Of a DNA stretch of 51,548 bases, positions 1 through 51,548 are shown one piece after another (positions within the stretch are counted from its first letter, which is position 1; each line of letters opens with the position of its first letter). A program made the position numbers and the translations under genes. The notes under the pieces are model-generated. The model had not been told where the DNA came from and searched no databases. It saw only the letters and a program-made list of their open reading frames with translations. Source of the DNA: Escherichia phage SKA49; sequence record NC_079180.1; one strand, 5' to 3'.

Positions 1-170
1 GCTCACTTCGCCCGCTTTATATTATAATTTTATTTTGGGCCAGCGGGGAGGGGAAGTTGTGACATTATTATTTTAAAATTTTTTATCTCCGAGGAGGGGA
101 AGCCCAACGTCCTATCGGACTTAAAATACGGTCCCTACCCCAACTTTTTCCTACAGCCTATCGGCTTTCA
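1..170. repeat. left-end non-coding repeat region
   Basis: G-rich motif GGGGAGGGGAAG at about 45-56 and GAGGAGGGGAAG at 91-102; 12-bp palindromes GTCCTATCGGAC (109-120) and AGCCTATCGGCT (155-166); AT-rich runs; no ORF. Confidence 0.35.
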
Positions 171-250
171 AACAACACCAAGTTAGGCGCTTCGCTTATA
201 AGTCAAGGTCAAAGGCAATCAGAGTACGCTGTTGTAATGTGCTAGTCTCA

Positions 251-270
251 CCATTAGTTGGTTGTGATTA
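251..270 (+). promoter_or_regulatory. variant of the phage promoter-like motif (CCATTAGTTGGTTGTGATT) upstream of the RNAP gene
   Basis: Matches the core CATTAGTTGG-TGTGA shared by seven other intergenic copies; lies 60 nt upstream of the RNAP start. Confidence 0.4.
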
Positions 271-330
271 TGAATAGGCTACGCAAGTCTAATCCGTTTC
301 AGTTAAATCATAATCAATTGGAGACTTATC

Positions 331-2445
331 ATGACTAACGAAGAATACCGTGCACTGGCTGCTGATGGCGCTCGCTTGAAAGAAGAAGGCCAAGGTTGGA
401 AAGACGTGCTCGATACGATGGACCGTTGCAACCAGATGGTAGATGAAATCACCTCCGTTACACAAACCGAAACTAAAACCGAAACTAAATTGGAGACTCG
501 CAAAATGACAACTATCTCAACTCAAACTATCAAATCCGTTGTCCCTGCTATCACTGCTCTGGTATATCGTGCCAAAGAGAAACAGAACTACATGCAGCCT
601 CAGACCTGTGCTATTGCTGCTCTTGCAATCTTTAAGATGATGACCTCATTCACTCGTGATGACGTTGTTCCTGCCATTGCGATGGTTGAGCTGGCTTCTG
701 CTTCTATTGCTGATGCCAACCGCTACAACAACGACTTGAAAGCAATGCACTATGTTGACCCAGCTATCAACCTCATTGGTCTGGCTAAGCACTTCGGCTT
801 CATTACCATGAACGAAGACAAGTCATTCCAACAGACTGACACATGGGTTGAACTGGTTACAACCAAAGACACAGCAGTGCCATTCACTGAGCGTGTTACA
901 TCTGAATCTCGTCGCAAGCCTTTCGTTAAAGGTGGCAAAGTTAAGCCATCCAAAACTTTGAAAGCTGCAATCGAATTCCTGCAAGATACTGAGTACCATG
1001 TGGAGACTGAGATGGTTCGCATCATCCAGTCCATGATTGAACAGCGTACTTATGGTGGCTTGCAGATGCCAGAAGCAATCCAGACTGAACTCCATGTTTG
1101 GAACAATGCTGTAGCAATGATGAATCAGGACACACTGTATTCTGACTACTTTGCTGACAACCGTGGTCGCCTGTATCATGTAGCATGTGCTGGTCCTAAC
1201 CCACAATCCTCTGACTTTGCTCGTTGCTTGTATTCTCACAATGTTGAGAACATCGTTAAGAAGTTTAACGAAGATGGTTCTACTACCATTGCATACAACA
1301 TGTTCATGGCAGAGCTGGAAGATATTTCCGGTGGTGAATGGTGCAGTGCTAAACGTCTGACCTATGTTGCTCAGAATCCAGCTGGTTCACTTGCTCGCAT
1401 GATGAACATGCCTAAAGCTGAACGTCCTTCTAAGCCATTCACTTATGTTCGTCTGGCTCTGGATTGGTTCAAGTTTGAGACTACAGGTGAATGCGATTCT
1501 CGTGTAGGCTTTGGCTTAGATGCTAAATGTTCTGGTACTCAATATCTGGCATTCATTGCTGGTAACATGGAAATGGCTCGTGCAACAGGTCTGGTTGATT
1601 CTGAGACTAAAGCATCTGACCCATACCAGTTGAGTCTTCGTGAACTGTTGAAGCTGCTGGACAAGTCTTCAATGAAACCTTCTGTTGAAATCATGGATGA
1701 ATTCTTGAACCCTAAAGCTGGTCGTAAGTTTATCAAAACTCCGTACATGGCTATTCAATATGGTGGTGGTAAAGCTGCATTAACTGGTTCATCTGACTTC
1801 ATTAGCTACATGACAGAAGCGCTCCAGATTCCTATGGAGAAAGCTGAGGCATTTGCTGAACTGTGTGTAGAAGCAATCCATAACGCATTGGGTGCTAAGA
1901 TTAACATGTTCATCGAGAAAGCTGCTGATGCTGCATACAACCGTTGTGTTGAACTCAACAAAGAGTACATCACATATCGTCACACTGATGGTCAGGTTGT
2001 AATGAAGCCTTGCTTCCCATCTCGTGAAATCTGTGAGGCATTCAGCATTCGTGTTGACTCACAAACTCGTGTTATCTTTGGCCAGATTCAGGAGAATAAG
2101 CCTTGGACCATTCGTGAATCCAATCCAACTAAAGAAGAATTCAAGCGTACTTTCGTTGTTAACTACATTCAAGGTATTGACGCATTGGTTGCTCGTACTG
2201 TTGCAGTTAAGGCTAAAGAAGCTGGTCTTCGTGGCTTCACTTCAATCCATGATTGTTTCCGTTGCTGTCTGGCAGATGCTCCACGTATGATGGAAGTTAT
2301 TCGTGCAGCATATGTTGAAATCTTTGTAACCAACAATCAATTCGAGAATCTGTCTAAGCAACTCGGTGGCATTCAGATGTATCATGAGAACATCGTAACC
2401 GAAGAGCTTCTGATGAGCGAACACGCTTACTACTTCTGTCAATAA
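331..2445 (+). CDS. T7-type single-subunit DNA-dependent RNA polymerase (compact, 704 aa)
   Basis: Motif A-like FGLDAKCSGTQYLA, motif B-like GRKFIKTPYMAIQYGGG, motif C TSIHDCF with catalytic Asp; GGAG RBS before ATG. Confidence 0.85.
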   Translation: MTNEEYRALAADGARLKEEGQGWKDVLDTMDRCNQMVDEITSVTQTETKTETKLETRKMTTISTQTIKSVVPAITALVYRAKEKQNYMQPQTCAIAALAIFKMMTSFTRDDVVPAIAMVELASASIADANRYNNDLKAMHYVDPAINLIGLAKHFGFITMNEDKSFQQTDTWVELVTTKDTAVPFTERVTSESRRKPFVKGGKVKPSKTLKAAIEFLQDTEYHVETEMVRIIQSMIEQRTYGGLQMPEAIQTELHVWNNAVAMMNQDTLYSDYFADNRGRLYHVACAGPNPQSSDFARCLYSHNVENIVKKFNEDGSTTIAYNMFMAELEDISGGEWCSAKRLTYVAQNPAGSLARMMNMPKAERPSKPFTYVRLALDWFKFETTGECDSRVGFGLDAKCSGTQYLAFIAGNMEMARATGLVDSETKASDPYQLSLRELLKLLDKSSMKPSVEIMDEFLNPKAGRKFIKTPYMAIQYGGGKAALTGSSDFISYMTEALQIPMEKAEAFAELCVEAIHNALGAKINMFIEKAADAAYNRCVELNKEYITYRHTDGQVVMKPCFPSREICEAFSIRVDSQTRVIFGQIQENKPWTIRESNPTKEEFKRTFVVNYIQGIDALVARTVAVKAKEAGLRGFTSIHDCFRCCLADAPRMMEVIRAAYVEIFVTNNQFENLSKQLGGIQMYHENIVTEELLMSEHAYYFCQ

Positions 2446-2453
2446 GAGAAACA

Positions 2454-2497
2454 GGGCTGTCATCGAAAGGTGATGGCCCTTTCTTTATTCTTTATTA
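2454..2497 (+). terminator. intrinsic terminator after RNAP gene
   Basis: Hairpin GGGCTGTCAT-CGAAAG-GTGATGGCCC (with G-T pairs) followed by TTTCTTTATTCTTTATT. Confidence 0.55.
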
Positions 2498-2525
2498 ATT
2501 AAATCCTTTAATTCCCAATATTCAA

Positions 2526-3300
2526 GCAATATTGCTGCATGTAATATTGTTTCAATATTCGACATTAGTTGGATGTGAAGTAACAGAATACGGAGAAGTA
2601 TTCCGCATGTCATGTTGAATCATTCTAGAAACATTCAGCATGTCAGCTTTGAGTTACAGCGTTGTAATGATGTGGCAATCATTGAACTCCCTGGGAAGGC
2701 CACCTACAGTTCCAGCAACCATGACTTAGAGTAGGAATATCTATCCGAAACTTGGACTTCATTGTAGTTTGGTGTGCTTCATCGTGAGAAAGGTAGCGAC
2801 AACTTTCATAAGCAAATAGCATGACTCATTCCAGACAAACTTGGAACAGCTCATGTAGTACCAGCATGTTCAATTGCGACAATATTGCTCCATCTCCTAT
2901 TATAAAGGCCCACCCACAAGCCGGGAGATAACTTTGGTAATATTGGAACTTTTGGACATGCTTCTTTCTTTCAATCAGAATTCGAAAGAAGAGAAGAGTC
3001 GGAGCAAAGCCTCTCGTTTACACGCAGAAGCCGCCCCGATTTTGAGCAACAAATATTGTGACAATATTGTCGCAGTATGGCATGTAAATATTGCTACAAA
3101 TTGGCATGTTAGAATGTGGCAGAATTGTTAGAGGACTAATCACCTCGAAGATACAATCGTCTGCCAATCTGGCATGTTAATTTTGTAACAGTATTTGTGC
3201 CAATTTCGCATGTAGTATTTAACCCAATATTCTTGCAACCCGCATGAATACTGGCTTTCAGCCAAGCGAAGGCTTTATCATCGCATGTAATATTGTGACA
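2526..3300. repeat. cluster of AT-rich palindromic motifs (CAATATTG, GACAATATTGTC) and GCATGTAATATTG-like repeats
   Basis: CAATATTG or near copies at about 2527, 2545, 2877, 3049, 3058, 3087, 3294, 3302; (G/C)GCATGT(A/T)A-TATT at about 2536, 3080, 3102, 3169, 3205, 3282. Confidence 0.5.
2562..2580 (+). promoter_or_regulatory. phage promoter-like motif ACATTAGTTGGATGTGAAG
   Basis: Conserved about 19-bp motif in an intergenic position, one of eight copies. Confidence 0.55.
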
Positions 3301-3508
3301 ATATTGGGATAAAACCCTTTATTTAAATCATTTAGTTTATTAATTAAATGGTCGGTTTTCTGTACATAGGTATTCAGCTGTTTGTGCCAAATACAAACAA
3401 GTTGGCTGCTTCTACAGAACTCCAGTGCTACAAATGTTCGTGCCAATCTGCTGCAATTTATCTCATTTGGCGGGGTAATATTGTATTAGGTTGGTACGTC
3501 ATTATTTC

Positions 3509-3529
3509 GATTAGTTGCATGTGAATAAG
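3509..3529 (+). promoter_or_regulatory. degenerate promoter-like motif GATTAGTTGCATGTGAATAAG
   Basis: Partial match to the ACATTAGTTGGATGTGAAG consensus, upstream of the early gene cluster. Confidence 0.3.
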
Positions 3530-3717
3530 ACCAAATCTCTGTAAATTCTGTGACAGATTTTAGAGAGATTATGTCTCCAAGCTAATCATTGTAGTTTTTA
3601 GACACTTTGTGTGTCACATATATAGCCTGTGAAAAACGTGTGGTATATTGCTGGATTGCGACGCGCCCACCAGACTAGGAAGTCACTGACGGCGGCACAC
3701 ACAGGAATACTATATAA

Positions 3718-3780
3718 CTCCCTACAACTTTAAGGTGGATTGAGGTAAGACAAGACCTCCACAATCGTTCTGTAGGGAGT
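3718..3780 (+). promoter_or_regulatory. 9-bp inverted repeat (CTCCCTACA ... TGTAGGGAG) with nested GTGGA/TCCAC stem, upstream of first early gene
   Basis: Perfect reverse-complement arms 3718-3726 and 3772-3780 separated by 45 nt; candidate RNA structure or processing site. Confidence 0.35.
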
Positions 3781-3804
3781 TTTCCTTTAACTTTGGAGAA
3801 TAAA

Positions 3805-4053
3805 ATGGATACTGTGATTAAAGCTGCTTGTTTCAAAGACCTGCAAGATGGTCAAATCTTCACTGTTCGTTCTGTGAAGTGGATTAAAGTAAATGAGTCA
3901 GATAAGTACAATGCTGTAAAGTTCTTTGATTCAAGCAAAGCATGTACTTTTAGCGACAATATTGTTGTCAATATTGAAGTCGAATTAATTCCTGATGACG
4001 GAGATGTTGAAGCAACTCTTCGTAACACTGCTGGATATAACGAGGGATTCTAA
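3805..4053 (+). CDS. hypothetical early protein (82 aa)
   Basis: ATG with GGAG RBS 6 nt upstream; track ORF begins at TTG 3793. Confidence 0.6.
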   Translation: MDTVIKAACFKDLQDGQIFTVRSVKWIKVNESDKYNAVKFFDSSKACTFSDNIVVNIEVELIPDDGDVEATLRNTAGYNEGF

Positions 4054-4296
4054 ATGAATTATGCTTTATATCAATACATCAATCGCGATGGTGTTGTTTC
4101 TCATGCTTTGGTTAATACTGAAACCAGAGCAATAATGTTGGCAGACTTAATATCTTATACATCACTTTACGAAAACAAGCTGGTGTGGAATAATGCCGCA
4201 TATCCTGAATATGTTTGGCAAGCAATCCAGAATGACAAACATCACAAAGTTGTGGCAACTGCCACACATCCAGATTTCTTGAAAGTAAGAGGTTAA
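4054..4296 (+). CDS. hypothetical early protein (80 aa)
   Basis: ATG abuts upstream stop (TAAATG); track ORF. Confidence 0.55.
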   Translation: MNYALYQYINRDGVVSHALVNTETRAIMLADLISYTSLYENKLVWNNAAYPEYVWQAIQNDKHHKVVATATHPDFLKVRG

Positions 4297-10353: not shown

Positions 10354-10476
10354 CTGACCACTTAGGGGAAGAAAGGCATTATACACTTATCGCCAAATGG
10401 GTGTCAAGCACTTTCTTCATTTATTTAATTTTATTCTTATTATTCTTTTTGTTTGGAATATTGGAATAATTCTGAA

Positions 10477-10495
10477 ACATTAATTGGAATTGAAG
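10477..10495 (+). promoter_or_regulatory. phage promoter-like motif ACATTAATTGGAATTGAAG
   Basis: Preceded by TCTGAA; intergenic, second copy in the same spacer. Confidence 0.45.
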
Positions 10496-25730: not shown

Positions 25731-25916
25731 ATGCGCACAATACAATGTCCTAACTGCCATTATGAAATTGCAGAAGATGATTTCATAACGCAGCAATGTC
25801 CTATCTGTGATTCATACATGCCACTAAACCGCCTGTATTTAAAGGCCGATTCTGGTTTAGGCAGCATCATTCGCATCAATCCCGTGCAAACTCAGCCATT
25901 AGTGGATTGTGATTAA
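25731..25916 (+). CDS. small zinc-ribbon protein (CPNCH...CPICD)
   Basis: Two CxxC pairs; GGAG RBS. Confidence 0.5.
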   Translation: MRTIQCPNCHYEIAEDDFITQQCPICDSYMPLNRLYLKADSGLGSIIRINPVQTQPLVDCD

Positions 25917-25936: not shown

Positions 25937-27955
25937 ATGTCAAAGACTGATGACCTCGGACCGGAGTTTAATGATACAGTAGCCTCGTATCTTGCCAAGC
26001 ACTACGGTGACGTATTAAAAGTCTCAAGAGAAAGATTCTGTATTCTATCTTTGCCATTGCTCCGTCGATATATTTCAGAAAATACTGCAATAGTTGACAG
26101 CTATGAAGAACAAATTCAAGCAGAGTTAGAAGGCCAGGGTCTTGAAAACGATGCTGTATTGCGTTCCGTTTTCAGAGCACAACTTGAGCGTCTTCGCTCT
26201 GGCGACAAGAAAGACTCGACTGCCTATGCAGATGAGTTGAAGAAAGGTATTCAAGCAGGTGTTACTGACCGTGTTGCAGGTTCCACATTAGAGGAGCCAA
26301 ACTCGGAGCATGATAACACCGATGAACTTGTAGACAAGATTCTGCATGACCCACACAATGTGGACCCAACTGTAATCCCTGCCAAGGTTGCAGAACGTGT
26401 TCGCAAAATCTTGATGAAAAGTTTCGAAGCCTTTGGTAAATGGCAGTTCCATATTCAGATGGGATTTCCATTTCAAGCACAAGACTTTCACGATGTAATA
26501 TTCAGTGTTGGTCAGAAGGTTGTTGATGGTGAAATTGACCGCTTAATAGTGACAATTCCTCCACGACACTCTAAGACTCAGCTTATGAGTATTGCATTGC
26601 CCTTGTATTCATTTTGCCACAATGAATCAAGCCATAACATTATCACCTCGTATGCAGAAGACGTTGTTCTTGAATCGAGTGGTTACATTCGTGCTGTAAT
26701 GATGGACCCACTGTTCCAACGCATATTCCCGAAGGTGAGAATCGACCCTAACAAACGTTCTCTTGAACGCTGGGGTACAACCAAAGCTGGAGTTATGCAC
26801 GCAGTACCTACTGGTGGTAAGCTAACTGGTAAAGGTGCTGGACTTCTTGTTGCAAAATACTCCGGTTGTTTCGTGGTGGATGACGTTATCAAGCCGAAAG
26901 ATGCCTACTCTGACACAGTTCGAGCAGAAATCAACGACCGATTTGATAACACCTTTATGTCACGTCTTGCCAACGATGGTTGCATAACTGATTCGTACGG
27001 AAACCAAATTAAGTGTGCCCGTACACCAATGGTTATCATCATGCAGCGAGTCCATGACCAGGATTTAGTTGGTTATATACTCCGTGGTGGCTCTTCTGAT
27101 AAATATCATTACCTCAATATCCCAGCGATTATTGAGAAAGGTGTCGGAAGTGCTGAATGGTATGATAAGTTAATCAAGAAGCAGAACTACACTCATGCTA
27201 TACCCATTCTGTATAATTTGAACAGGAAGGAAGAGAAGTCTGCATTATGGCCTTCACGTAAGAGTTTAGAATCTCTGGAGGCAATGAAAGAGTCTAACCC
27301 ATACACATACAATTCACAGTATGCTGGCGACCCATCTGCACAAGGCCATGGCCTTATCAAAGAAGATTGGTGGCAAGAGTATGAGCCAGACGTTTTCGAC
27401 AGAAGTCGCATAGTCAGAAGTTTTATTACAGCGGATACGGCATCAACTGCCAAATCCTATTCTGATTATTCGGTCCTTAAGCATTGGGGCGTGACTAAAG
27501 AGCGTGACGTTTATTGTTTAGATATTATGCTCGGTAAGTTTGAAACTCCAGAACTCAAGACTGCTATCATCGACTTCTGGAACAAATGCAACAAGTTGGA
27601 CTTGAAATGCGTAGGTTGTATTCCTCGTGCATTGTACATGGAAGACAAGTCTGCCGGACAATTCTTGAACCAACAATTTATCAGAGATGGGAGTGTCCGA
27701 GTTTTACCATTGCCTCGTGATGGCATTAATGGTAATGACAAGGTAACTCGATTCCTTAACGCAATCCCATATTTCTCGCAAAAGAGAATATTCTTCCCTG
27801 CTGGTCATGAACACATCGACCACGTTAGACGTGAAATACTTGGATTCACTTCTTTGGGTAGTGGTACTGGACACGACGATTGTGTCGATAACGTTTCAGA
27901 TATGGTTGCAATCGAATTCTCAGGCCCAAGTGCCAACTACTCCGCATGGATGTAA
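25937..27955 (+). CDS. terminase large subunit
   Basis: Walker A-like PRHSKT, Walker B VVDD, nuclease Asp blocks ITADTAS and GHDDCVDN. Confidence 0.85.
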   Translation: MSKTDDLGPEFNDTVASYLAKHYGDVLKVSRERFCILSLPLLRRYISENTAIVDSYEEQIQAELEGQGLENDAVLRSVFRAQLERLRSGDKKDSTAYADELKKGIQAGVTDRVAGSTLEEPNSEHDNTDELVDKILHDPHNVDPTVIPAKVAERVRKILMKSFEAFGKWQFHIQMGFPFQAQDFHDVIFSVGQKVVDGEIDRLIVTIPPRHSKTQLMSIALPLYSFCHNESSHNIITSYAEDVVLESSGYIRAVMMDPLFQRIFPKVRIDPNKRSLERWGTTKAGVMHAVPTGGKLTGKGAGLLVAKYSGCFVVDDVIKPKDAYSDTVRAEINDRFDNTFMSRLANDGCITDSYGNQIKCARTPMVIIMQRVHDQDLVGYILRGGSSDKYHYLNIPAIIEKGVGSAEWYDKLIKKQNYTHAIPILYNLNRKEEKSALWPSRKSLESLEAMKESNPYTYNSQYAGDPSAQGHGLIKEDWWQEYEPDVFDRSRIVRSFITADTASTAKSYSDYSVLKHWGVTKERDVYCLDIMLGKFETPELKTAIIDFWNKCNKLDLKCVGCIPRALYMEDKSAGQFLNQQFIRDGSVRVLPLPRDGINGNDKVTRFLNAIPYFSQKRIFFPAGHEHIDHVRREILGFTSLGSGTGHDDCVDNVSDMVAIEFSGPSANYSAWM

Positions 27956-40380: not shown

Positions 40381-40406
40381 GGGGAGAAATCCCCAGCTTT
40401 CCTTTT
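40381..40406 (+). terminator. intrinsic terminator (GGGGA-GAAA-TCCCC then AGCTTTCCTTTT)
   Basis: GNRA tetraloop hairpin with T-rich tail directly after tape-measure stop. Confidence 0.55.
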
Positions 40407-40425
40407 ACATTAGTTGAACATGTAT
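40407..40425 (+). promoter_or_regulatory. phage promoter-like motif ACATTAGTTGAACATGTAT
   Basis: Immediately after terminator, 23 nt before baseplate gene 40448. Confidence 0.45.
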
Positions 40426-51470: not shown

Positions 51471-51548
51471 AATAAGTAAGTTAAATATTACTTATTCCCA
51501 ATATTGCTACAATATTAAGAGTAATATTAGGAATGCGTAAAGTTCAAA
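51471..51548. repeat. right-end non-coding region with 9-bp AT-rich hairpin and three AATATT(G/A) motifs
   Basis: AATAAGTAA-GTTAAATA-TTACTTATT hairpin; CCAATATTGCTACAATATTAAGAGTAATATTAGG echoes the 2.5-3.3 kb cluster. Confidence 0.35.

Follow-up and report, generated by a model that had tools for sequence, protein, structure and literature searches.

A conserved, previously unannotated member of a predicted phage promoter family directly upstream of the gene for RNA polymerase in Escherichia phage SKA49, and its possible role in a self-amplifying polymerase cassette

The window that we examine here (51,548 nt) is the complete or nearly complete genome of Escherichia phage SKA49, a phiEcoM-GJ1-like E. 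coli myovirus (Carltongylesvirus, Chaseviridae) whose first 3 kb share 91-96% identity with TH26, Bp10, Mangalitsa, ST32 and others. Throughout this genome, the long ORFs are in every case on the + strand. We will focus on the locus formed by the gene of an RNA polymerase (RNAP) of the single-subunit type, the terminator that follows it and a short motif that precedes it, which are laid out as follows:

250-270, + strand: aCCATTAGTTGGTTGTGATTa, a predicted promoter motif of the phage type that precedes the RNAP gene (from its matrix score and its conservation in relatives)
320-323, + strand: GGAG ribosome-binding site (RBS) of the RNAP ORF, read from the sequence; the homologous RBS is annotated in Mangalitsa
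331-2445, + strand: single-subunit RNAP ORF, 704 aa (Pfam RNA_pol match, 1e-19)
2453-2480, + strand: predicted strong intrinsic terminator with a 12-bp stem and a T run, directly 3' of the RNAP stop codon; its homologue is annotated in SA91KD

The 704-aa RNAP shares 92-99% identity with the annotated RNA polymerases of TH26, Bp10, Mangalitsa, ST32 and others. A GenBank record titled 'Staphylococcus phage Pel53' (PP952070.1) carries an RNAP that is 93% identical to the enzyme of these E. coli phages; its host label is probably wrong, or the record contaminated. An in-frame ATG within the ORF, at 505, is the counterpart of the start that is used in phiEcoM-GJ1 and ST32, and most relatives conserve it. 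The 331-504 part of the ORF is an in-frame N-terminal extension of 58 aa that is absent from phiEcoM-GJ1 and ST32; we considered it as the counterpart of the separate small gp01 of 4HA13 and rejected this, as there is no homology between them. The leader AATCAATTGGAGAC is duplicated, at 312-326 before ATG 331 and at 484-498 before ATG 505, and because it is present before both ATGs, two forms of the RNAP (704 and 646 aa) may be made. When folded, the 266-345 leader is no more stable than its shuffles (z = 0.17), and an Rfam search of 1-3700 gave a single sub-threshold miRNA match, which we take as chance.

The motif itself, CCATTAGTTGGTTGTGATT, occupies 251-269 on the + strand, outside any ORF, and no + strand terminator is found between 270 and 331, the first one being that of 2453-2480. 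The initial annotation had seen here a promoter-like motif variant sitting 60 nt upstream of the start of the RNAP gene. The distance stands for the 704-aa ORF, with 61 nt from the end of the motif to ATG 331, but the start that most relatives conserve, ATG 505, lies 235 nt downstream of the motif. The motif is indeed present; to call it a variant was, however, an overstatement, as can be seen from its rank within its own family in the genome. A search allowing 3 mismatches returned two matches, the 251-269 site and a copy at 25896, against 0.03 expected by chance, and a looser search found the core ACATTAGTTGGATGTGA at 253, 2564, 3510, 6997, 10337, 10479, 12468, 20312, 25898 and 40409. A 20-nt matrix was built from the nine other family sites, the RNAP-upstream site being excluded, and the whole genome was scored with it on both strands. 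The RNAP-upstream site reaches 25.7 bits with this matrix to which it did not contribute, while the nine others, scored by leave-one-out, range from 14.3 to 26.9 bits, the copy at 2564 (26.9 bits) being the single one above it. Genome-wide, ten sites score at least 21 bits, all of them on the + strand; the next best site has 12.7 bits and the best on the minus strand 12.2. In 40 Markov-shuffled genomes, the best score averaged 12.2 bits, with a maximum of 17.3. The site deviates from the consensus aACATTAGTTGGATGTGA at two positions only, both of which also vary among the other copies. With a score so far beyond chance, the motif is real, and it belongs to the family as a full-strength copy and not as a weak variant. 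The nine other members are the following:

2561-2580, + strand: 28.9 bits; its homologue in SA91KD and phiEcoM-GJ1, shortly after the RNAP gene, is annotated as a phage promoter of the phiEcoM-GJ1 type
3507-3526, + strand: 22.7 bits
6994-7013, + strand: 26.5 bits
10334-10353, + strand: 26.7 bits; first of a pair within a non-coding stretch of about 500 nt
10476-10495, + strand: 24.0 bits
12465-12484, + strand: 25.9 bits
20309-20328, + strand: 25.4 bits; within a small ORF
25895-25914, + strand: 21.6 bits; 25 nt before a 672-aa ORF (25937-27955)
40406-40425, + strand: 21.4 bits; upstream of baseplate genes

Eight of the ten sites fall outside the + strand ORFs of at least 60 aa, even though these ORFs make up 90% of the genome (P = 3e-7). 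At the position homologous to the 672-aa ORF, SA91KD is annotated with the terminase large subunit. The non-coding stretch of about 500 nt that houses the pair of sites also contains, between the phage promoters of 10334 and 10476, a perfect sigma-70 consensus on the minus strand (10378-10407, TTGACA-18-TATAAT, 12/12), which reads leftward in a genome whose genes are all rightward; this element might be an antisense promoter or a part of a replication origin.

Among the ten copies, no shared -10-like hexamer was found at a fixed distance downstream. An asymmetric element of about 18-20 nt, with neither a -10 partner nor a sigma-70 match, has the properties of a single-subunit RNAP promoter. 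In the T7 promoter, a binding block is followed by a short A/T-rich stretch (3-4 nt) and then by the initiating G. By analogy with this layout, the transcription start would tentatively be the invariant G of the motif, which is here at 266.

The same family could instead be bound by a phage transcription factor that works with the host RNAP, or by a replication or partition protein, the RNAP-upstream copy being then an operator. The link between the motif and the RNAP indeed rests on prediction, and the genome has other repeated elements of regulatory appearance, such as five copies of the palindrome AATATTG-N3-CAATATT. Against this, the motif is asymmetric, strictly confined to one strand and almost only intergenic, often just after terminators, and it comes with no -10 partner at a fixed distance. 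It also tracks the RNAP lineage, since it is kept in phages of six host genera and is absent where the RNAP is about 33% identical. Strandedness, terminator-promoter pairing and RNAP-lineage tracking are the hallmarks of single-subunit RNAP promoters, and we hold it unlikely that the sites serve another factor. As for the palindromes (0.04 expected), they are found at 2517-2533, 2543-2559, 3052-3068, 3289-3305 and 51500-51516, all in the early/terminal-repeat region, often beside GCATGT and for two of them just upstream of the 2561-2580 promoter; they look like the operator of a dimeric regulator.

Judging by sequence, the family, which belongs to the Cleopatravirinae, is the 'phage promoter' that was predicted in silico for phiEcoM-GJ1 in 2008. 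In the phiEcoM-GJ1 record (NC_010106), a 'putative host sigma70 promoter' is annotated before the RNAP gene, and a 'putative phage promoter 1' and '2' after it. In the SA91KD record (OL960574), the homologous sites are labelled 'similar to promoter of phiEcoM-GJ1 (Jamalludeen 2008)', and several of them directly follow predicted terminators. For PP101, eight consensus promoters have been hypothesised in silico (PMC6989608). According to the ICTV profile of 2022, the Chaseviridae promoters 'have not yet been identified' (PMC12842549). We looked in the literature for transcript mapping in Chaseviridae and for the motif sequence, and found nothing relevant, the published sites being all in silico. 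The copy that lies upstream of the RNAP gene is missing from these annotations. Thus, phiEcoM-GJ1 has its own copy, TATTAGTTGGAAGTGA, at 572, 83 nt before gp01, which its record does not list, and the SA91KD record likewise leaves its copy unlisted. None of the 49 GenBank records that match 215-330 carries a promoter annotation at this position; the features under these matches are 'none', terminal repeat, an RBS or the RNAP CDS. The RNAP-upstream copy can therefore be described, from these sequence comparisons, as a conserved and previously unannotated member of a known family of predicted promoters.

The position of the motif has also to be considered with respect to the end of the genome and to the host promoters that may lie there. 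Two features are needed here:

121-2996, no strand assigned: direct terminal repeat of about 2.9 kb with left end TTAAAATACGG, placed by homology; its right end (about 2996) was mapped by blastn
23-28, + strand: TATAAT, a perfect -10 hexamer with a T-rich run after it; relatives keep it just outside the terminal repeat

A terminal repeat of about 3 kb is given for Chaseviridae in the ICTV profile (PMC12842549), and PhageTerm-based annotations give a repeat of 3234 bp in Mangalitsa, 3120 bp in 4HA13 and 3202 bp in Myduc. In Mangalitsa and 4HA13, the repeat starts at the sequence homologous to SKA49 position 121, so that, with the left end placed by homology to these two phages, the motif lies about 130 bp into the repeat. 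The repeat contains the motif, the RNAP gene, the 2453-2480 terminator and the next promoter (2561-2580). Since it encloses the RNAP cassette, a compact promoter-gene-terminator unit is present at both ends of the packaged DNA.

The initial annotation took it as given that the host RNAP has to transcribe the RNAP gene first. This is a reasonable premise, and phiEcoM-GJ1 has an annotated sigma-70 promoter (TTGACG-N18-TATTAT) just outside the repeat, about 180 nt upstream of its motif copy, with similar host-promoter candidates in ST32, SA91KD and Mangalitsa. The corresponding stretch is, however, missing at the SKA49 ends. Indeed, about 265 nt that are present in Bp10, TH26 and Mangalitsa are missing between SKA49 positions 51548 and 1; in these relatives they comprise a long poly-T tract, three to four GAGACTAGAATTGT repeats (GAGACT(A/C)(G/A)AATTGT) and candidate host promoters. 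This absence is either an assembly gap at the homopolymer or a real deletion, and it is the reason why a host promoter that could prime the system is not visible in SKA49. The TATAAT of 23-28 is a candidate remnant of a host promoter reading toward the RNAP gene, for which the sequence starts too close to show a -35 box. Sigma-70 scans (1-4200 and the joined ends; at least 9/12 matches, spacing of 16-18 nt) gave no + strand match in 1-330. The best match, a TTCAAA-N17-TATATT element across the joined ends, was considered as a host promoter and rejected, as Bp10, TH26 and Mangalitsa have about 265 nt at this place.

It had also been suggested that the motif could be a decoy, or a variant that the host RNAP recognises. 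The analysis lends no support to the first of these. As to the second, the host RNAP would use an extended -10 look-alike, TGtGATTAT (264-271), at the 3' end of the motif. Here, TGTGATTAT does have a TG at -15/-14 and a GATTAT hexamer whose second and sixth positions are A and T, and 121-330 contains no other sigma-70 candidate. However, the hexamer has only 4/6 matches and the -35 region, TAGTCT, 3/6, which is below the threshold of the scan. In addition, the look-alike is specific to the haplotype of SKA49: the other haplotype and the other genera read TGAATTGTG or TGATTGTGAG while the core of the motif is kept, and neither the site nor the family comes with a conserved -35/-10. We thus regard recognition by the host RNAP as highly improbable.

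Several other elements are found around the predicted left end of the repeat. Two hairpins with the same loop, GTCC-TATC-GGAC (109-120) and AGCC-TATC-GGCT (155-166), bracket this end and are retained in relatives by compensatory changes (CCC/GGG, ACC/GGT, GAGCC/GGCTC); a role as elements for the terminase or for end recognition is possible. Another hairpin, AGGCG-CTT-CGCTT at 181-200, belongs to the conserved left-end block and shows compensatory changes in Loessnervirus-like contigs (CCTGC-TTC-GCAGG, CCCAC-TTC-GTGGG); as it is deleted in TH26 and L143, it is conserved yet dispensable. At 45-103, a 47-nt A/T-rich insert (TTGTGACATTATTATTTTAAAATTTTTTATCTCCGA...) flanked by the duplicated GGAGGGGAAG is common to SKA49, Bp10 and TH26, and absent from phiEcoM-GJ1, ST32 and Mangalitsa.

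To follow the motif among relatives, the homologous region was gathered from GenBank, IMG/VR and metagenome contigs. The 14-mer scan of IMG/VR gave mostly chance matches, which were filtered, and a longer pattern led to 10 viral and 3 metagenomic loci. The resulting alignment covers 14 lineages, including both Carltongylesvirus haplotypes, Faunus, 4HA13 and three uncultured (metagenomic) clades. Downstream of the motif, it reveals two conserved blocks:

277-284, + strand: GGCTACGC box, 8 nt, invariant across genera
290-301, + strand: conserved TAATCCGTTTCA

In these 14 lineages, a conserved sequence marks the left end of the terminal repeat and the motif comes 121-128 nt after it; ATTAGTTGG is invariant, and the GGCTACGC box follows 10-11 nt further on, while the roughly 40 nt that precede ATTAGTTGG have almost no conserved column. 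Likewise, blastn homology between the two Carltongylesvirus haplotypes has its first base at the start of the motif. The positions that vary between lineages (GG-A/T-T/A/C-G/A-T) coincide with those that vary between the promoters inside one genome, and one uncultured relative, L010, has a perfect consensus copy at the RNAP-upstream position (30.2 bits). With RNAalifold, the UCCG of TAATCCGTTTCA (AATCCG) pairs with the UGGA of the RNAP RBS, with 4 pairs and one sequence changed on both sides, so that TAATCCGTTTCA would be a possible weak anti-Shine-Dalgarno element.

Turnover is seen in other genera. In Suwonvirus (Okapia, PM1) and Myducvirus, the old motif position has decayed and a good copy, 40-45 nt ahead of the start of the RNAP, lies beyond the GGCTACGC box; thus the box, which is downstream of the motif in SKA49, is upstream of it in Suwonvirus and Myducvirus, as it is in Loessnervirus. 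Scored with the matrix of each genome, the relocated copies reach 22.3 bits in Suwonvirus and 17.7 bits in Myduc, and the copy of Myduc carries the lineage-specific TTGA-for-TTGG change that is found in the other copies of this phage. Loessnervirus has a degenerate sequence at both positions (8.7 bits, rank 15), which means that a promoter at the RNAP-upstream position is neither universal nor indispensable. The Nefertitivirinae, whose RNAP is about 33% identical, do not have the motif; they have a different repeated hairpin element, no copy of which is found before the RNAP gene, and they are uninformative on the RNAP-upstream site since the motif is absent from them. In Aeromonas phage pAh6-C, between 3700 and 15460, there are eleven hairpins GGCTC-N3/4-GAGCC followed by A(A/C)AAGA, with compensatory changes in the stem, all downstream of the RNAP gene and none upstream. 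For the other subfamily of Chaseviridae, this hairpin is a candidate for a promoter or a processing signal.

A core that does not vary, next to a flank that varies freely, together with the replacement of the site after its decay, points to selection for such an element in front of the polymerase gene. The copy at 251-269 might still be neutral or non-functional, for instance a relic of duplication or recombination at the genome end; the degenerate state of Loessnervirus and the fact that earlier annotators did not list this copy as a promoter would fit with this. But a relic would hardly show a core that is invariant in 14 lineages next to such a flank, nor a perfect consensus in one lineage, nor a copy re-created at a new position in two genera, and we find this explanation very unlikely.

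A role at the end of the DNA deserves more attention, although we give it a rather low probability: the site would be a phage-RNAP promoter used mainly for genome entry, replication priming or concatemer processing, and amplification of the RNAP would be a side effect. The distance to the predicted left end is fixed (+121 to +128 nt) in the lineages where the motif precedes the GGCTACGC box, and the motif belongs to the most conserved non-coding block of the family, with hairpins that show compensatory changes. We know of no contractile-tailed phage with transcription-coupled DNA entry, which speaks against such a role. In Suwonvirus and Myducvirus, moreover, it is the end-proximal position that has decayed and the good copy is nearer to the RNAP start, which fits selection for transcribing the gene better than selection for a constant distance to the end. 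A precedent exists in T7, where the phiOL promoter, near the left end, has been linked to RNAP-driven genome entry; phiOL is, however, weak and non-canonical (PMC6171733), whereas few matches are as strong as the 251-269 site.

What is established for this site is that it belongs to the family, its strand and position, its conservation and turnover, and the lack of an intervening terminator, and the gene of the cognate single-subunit RNAP adjoins it. The explanation that we favor, and that we consider reasonably probable, is that 251-269 is a functional promoter of the phage RNAP that makes the RNAP gene a self-amplifying cassette; recognition by the enzyme, the start point and the feedback are what we infer here. 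The first polymerase molecules would come from host-RNAP transcripts that start further upstream and read through into the RNAP gene, for which the annotated sigma-70 promoter of phiEcoM-GJ1, just outside the repeat, can serve as a model. Once present, the enzyme would initiate at 251-269, probably at G266, transcribe its own gene and stop at the hairpin terminator of 2453-2480. Promoter, gene and terminator would in this way form a natural 'autogene' under positive feedback, and this unit would be insulated from the early genes further downstream, which would use their own promoter at 2561-2580. That the enzyme might amplify its own synthesis by recognising the motif was already proposed in the initial annotation, and this is the reading that is favored by the full-strength match, the invariant core, the turnover, the TTGA change of Myduc and the lack of a terminator, the function itself being deduced from them. 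We rank self-amplification above a role at the DNA end because the copy moved toward the gene, and not toward the end, in two genera. The two are not mutually exclusive: as no other phage promoter lies further left than 251-269, this site may have phiOL-like roles at the end of the genome as well.

The terminal repeat adds a further question on priming. In packaged DNA, the left-end RNAP gene has about 130 bp before the phage promoter and no host promoter, while the right-end copy of the gene lies behind the host-promoter region. As the left-end copy is devoid of a host promoter, the cassette might be a closed self-starting loop, primed by a few virion-carried RNAP molecules (N4-style, with a T7-type enzyme) or only from the right-end copy; we regard such a loop as quite unlikely. 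The text and supplement of the 4HA13 proteome make no mention of a polymerase, which lends no support to a virion-carried RNAP and is not a real test of it either. If true, such a loop would make this myovirus family largely independent of the host RNAP for launching infection. In any case, the question is now sharpened to that of the origin of the first polymerase, given a gene located in a terminal repeat whose left copy has no host promoter.

The closest elements to the SKA49 site are the predicted promoters of the phiEcoM-GJ1 type, with which it has in common the consensus aACATTAGTTGGATGTGA, the strand and the intergenic placement. The nine other copies of SKA49 are homologues of sites annotated in the phiEcoM-GJ1 and SA91KD records; unlike our reading, these records leave out the RNAP-upstream copy. 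Chaseviridae are the myoviruses with a T7-type RNA polymerase, and their promoters are predicted ones. With 25.7 bits and a core that is invariant in 14 lineages, the site is well suited as the first template on which to define the pair of enzyme and promoter, and this pair could become a new orthogonal expression tool.

In T7, two arrangements can be compared with that of SKA49. The first is artificial: an autogene in which gene 1 is under a T7 promoter is said to have been engineered by Dubendorff and Studier in 1991. As in SKA49, promoter, polymerase and terminator form a unit in which the enzyme transcribes its own gene, but the T7 autogene is tolerated only under tight repression, whereas the SKA49 arrangement is natural. 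To our knowledge, T7 itself does not rely on such a self-feedback of its RNAP. The second is phiOL, which resembles the SKA49 site as a promoter for the phage RNAP that lies near the left genome end, points rightward and is upstream of the RNAP gene. According to what is reported of Dunn and Studier (1983), it is the leftmost promoter, which precedes gene 1 by about 2.7 kb and is also upstream of the host promoters A1-A3. Thus, phiOL is weak, non-canonical and distant from the gene, while the SKA49 site is a strong match 61 nt before it; and phiOL precedes the host promoters, while the SKA49 site is downstream of the candidate one.

The RNAP-upstream arrangement has an experimentally mapped precedent in another phage, the T7-like Pseudomonas phage LUZ100, in which ONT-cappable-seq mapped a phage-specific promoter (phi1) directly before the RNAP gene; positive feedback was proposed, and the arrangement was called peculiar (Putzeys et al. 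2023, PMC10134795). In both phages, a phage-specific promoter stands directly before the gene of the phage's own single-subunit RNAP, and in LUZ100 a host promoter is found further upstream of phi1, so that host read-through would come before the positive feedback (PMC10134795). The differences are that phi1 was mapped by 5'-end sequencing while the SKA49 site is predicted, and that MarR repressor sites are presumed on both sides of phi1 (PMC10134795), whereas no repressor-type palindromes flank 251-269, the nearest AATATTG-N3-CAATATT being about 300 nt away. Moreover, LUZ100 is a podovirus with temperate features, while the SKA49 cassette, which several genera conserve, is located in the terminal repeat of about 3 kb of a lytic myovirus. 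The position of the motif implies that positive feedback of the polymerase would be a design conserved across several genera, and not the peculiarity of one Pseudomonas phage.
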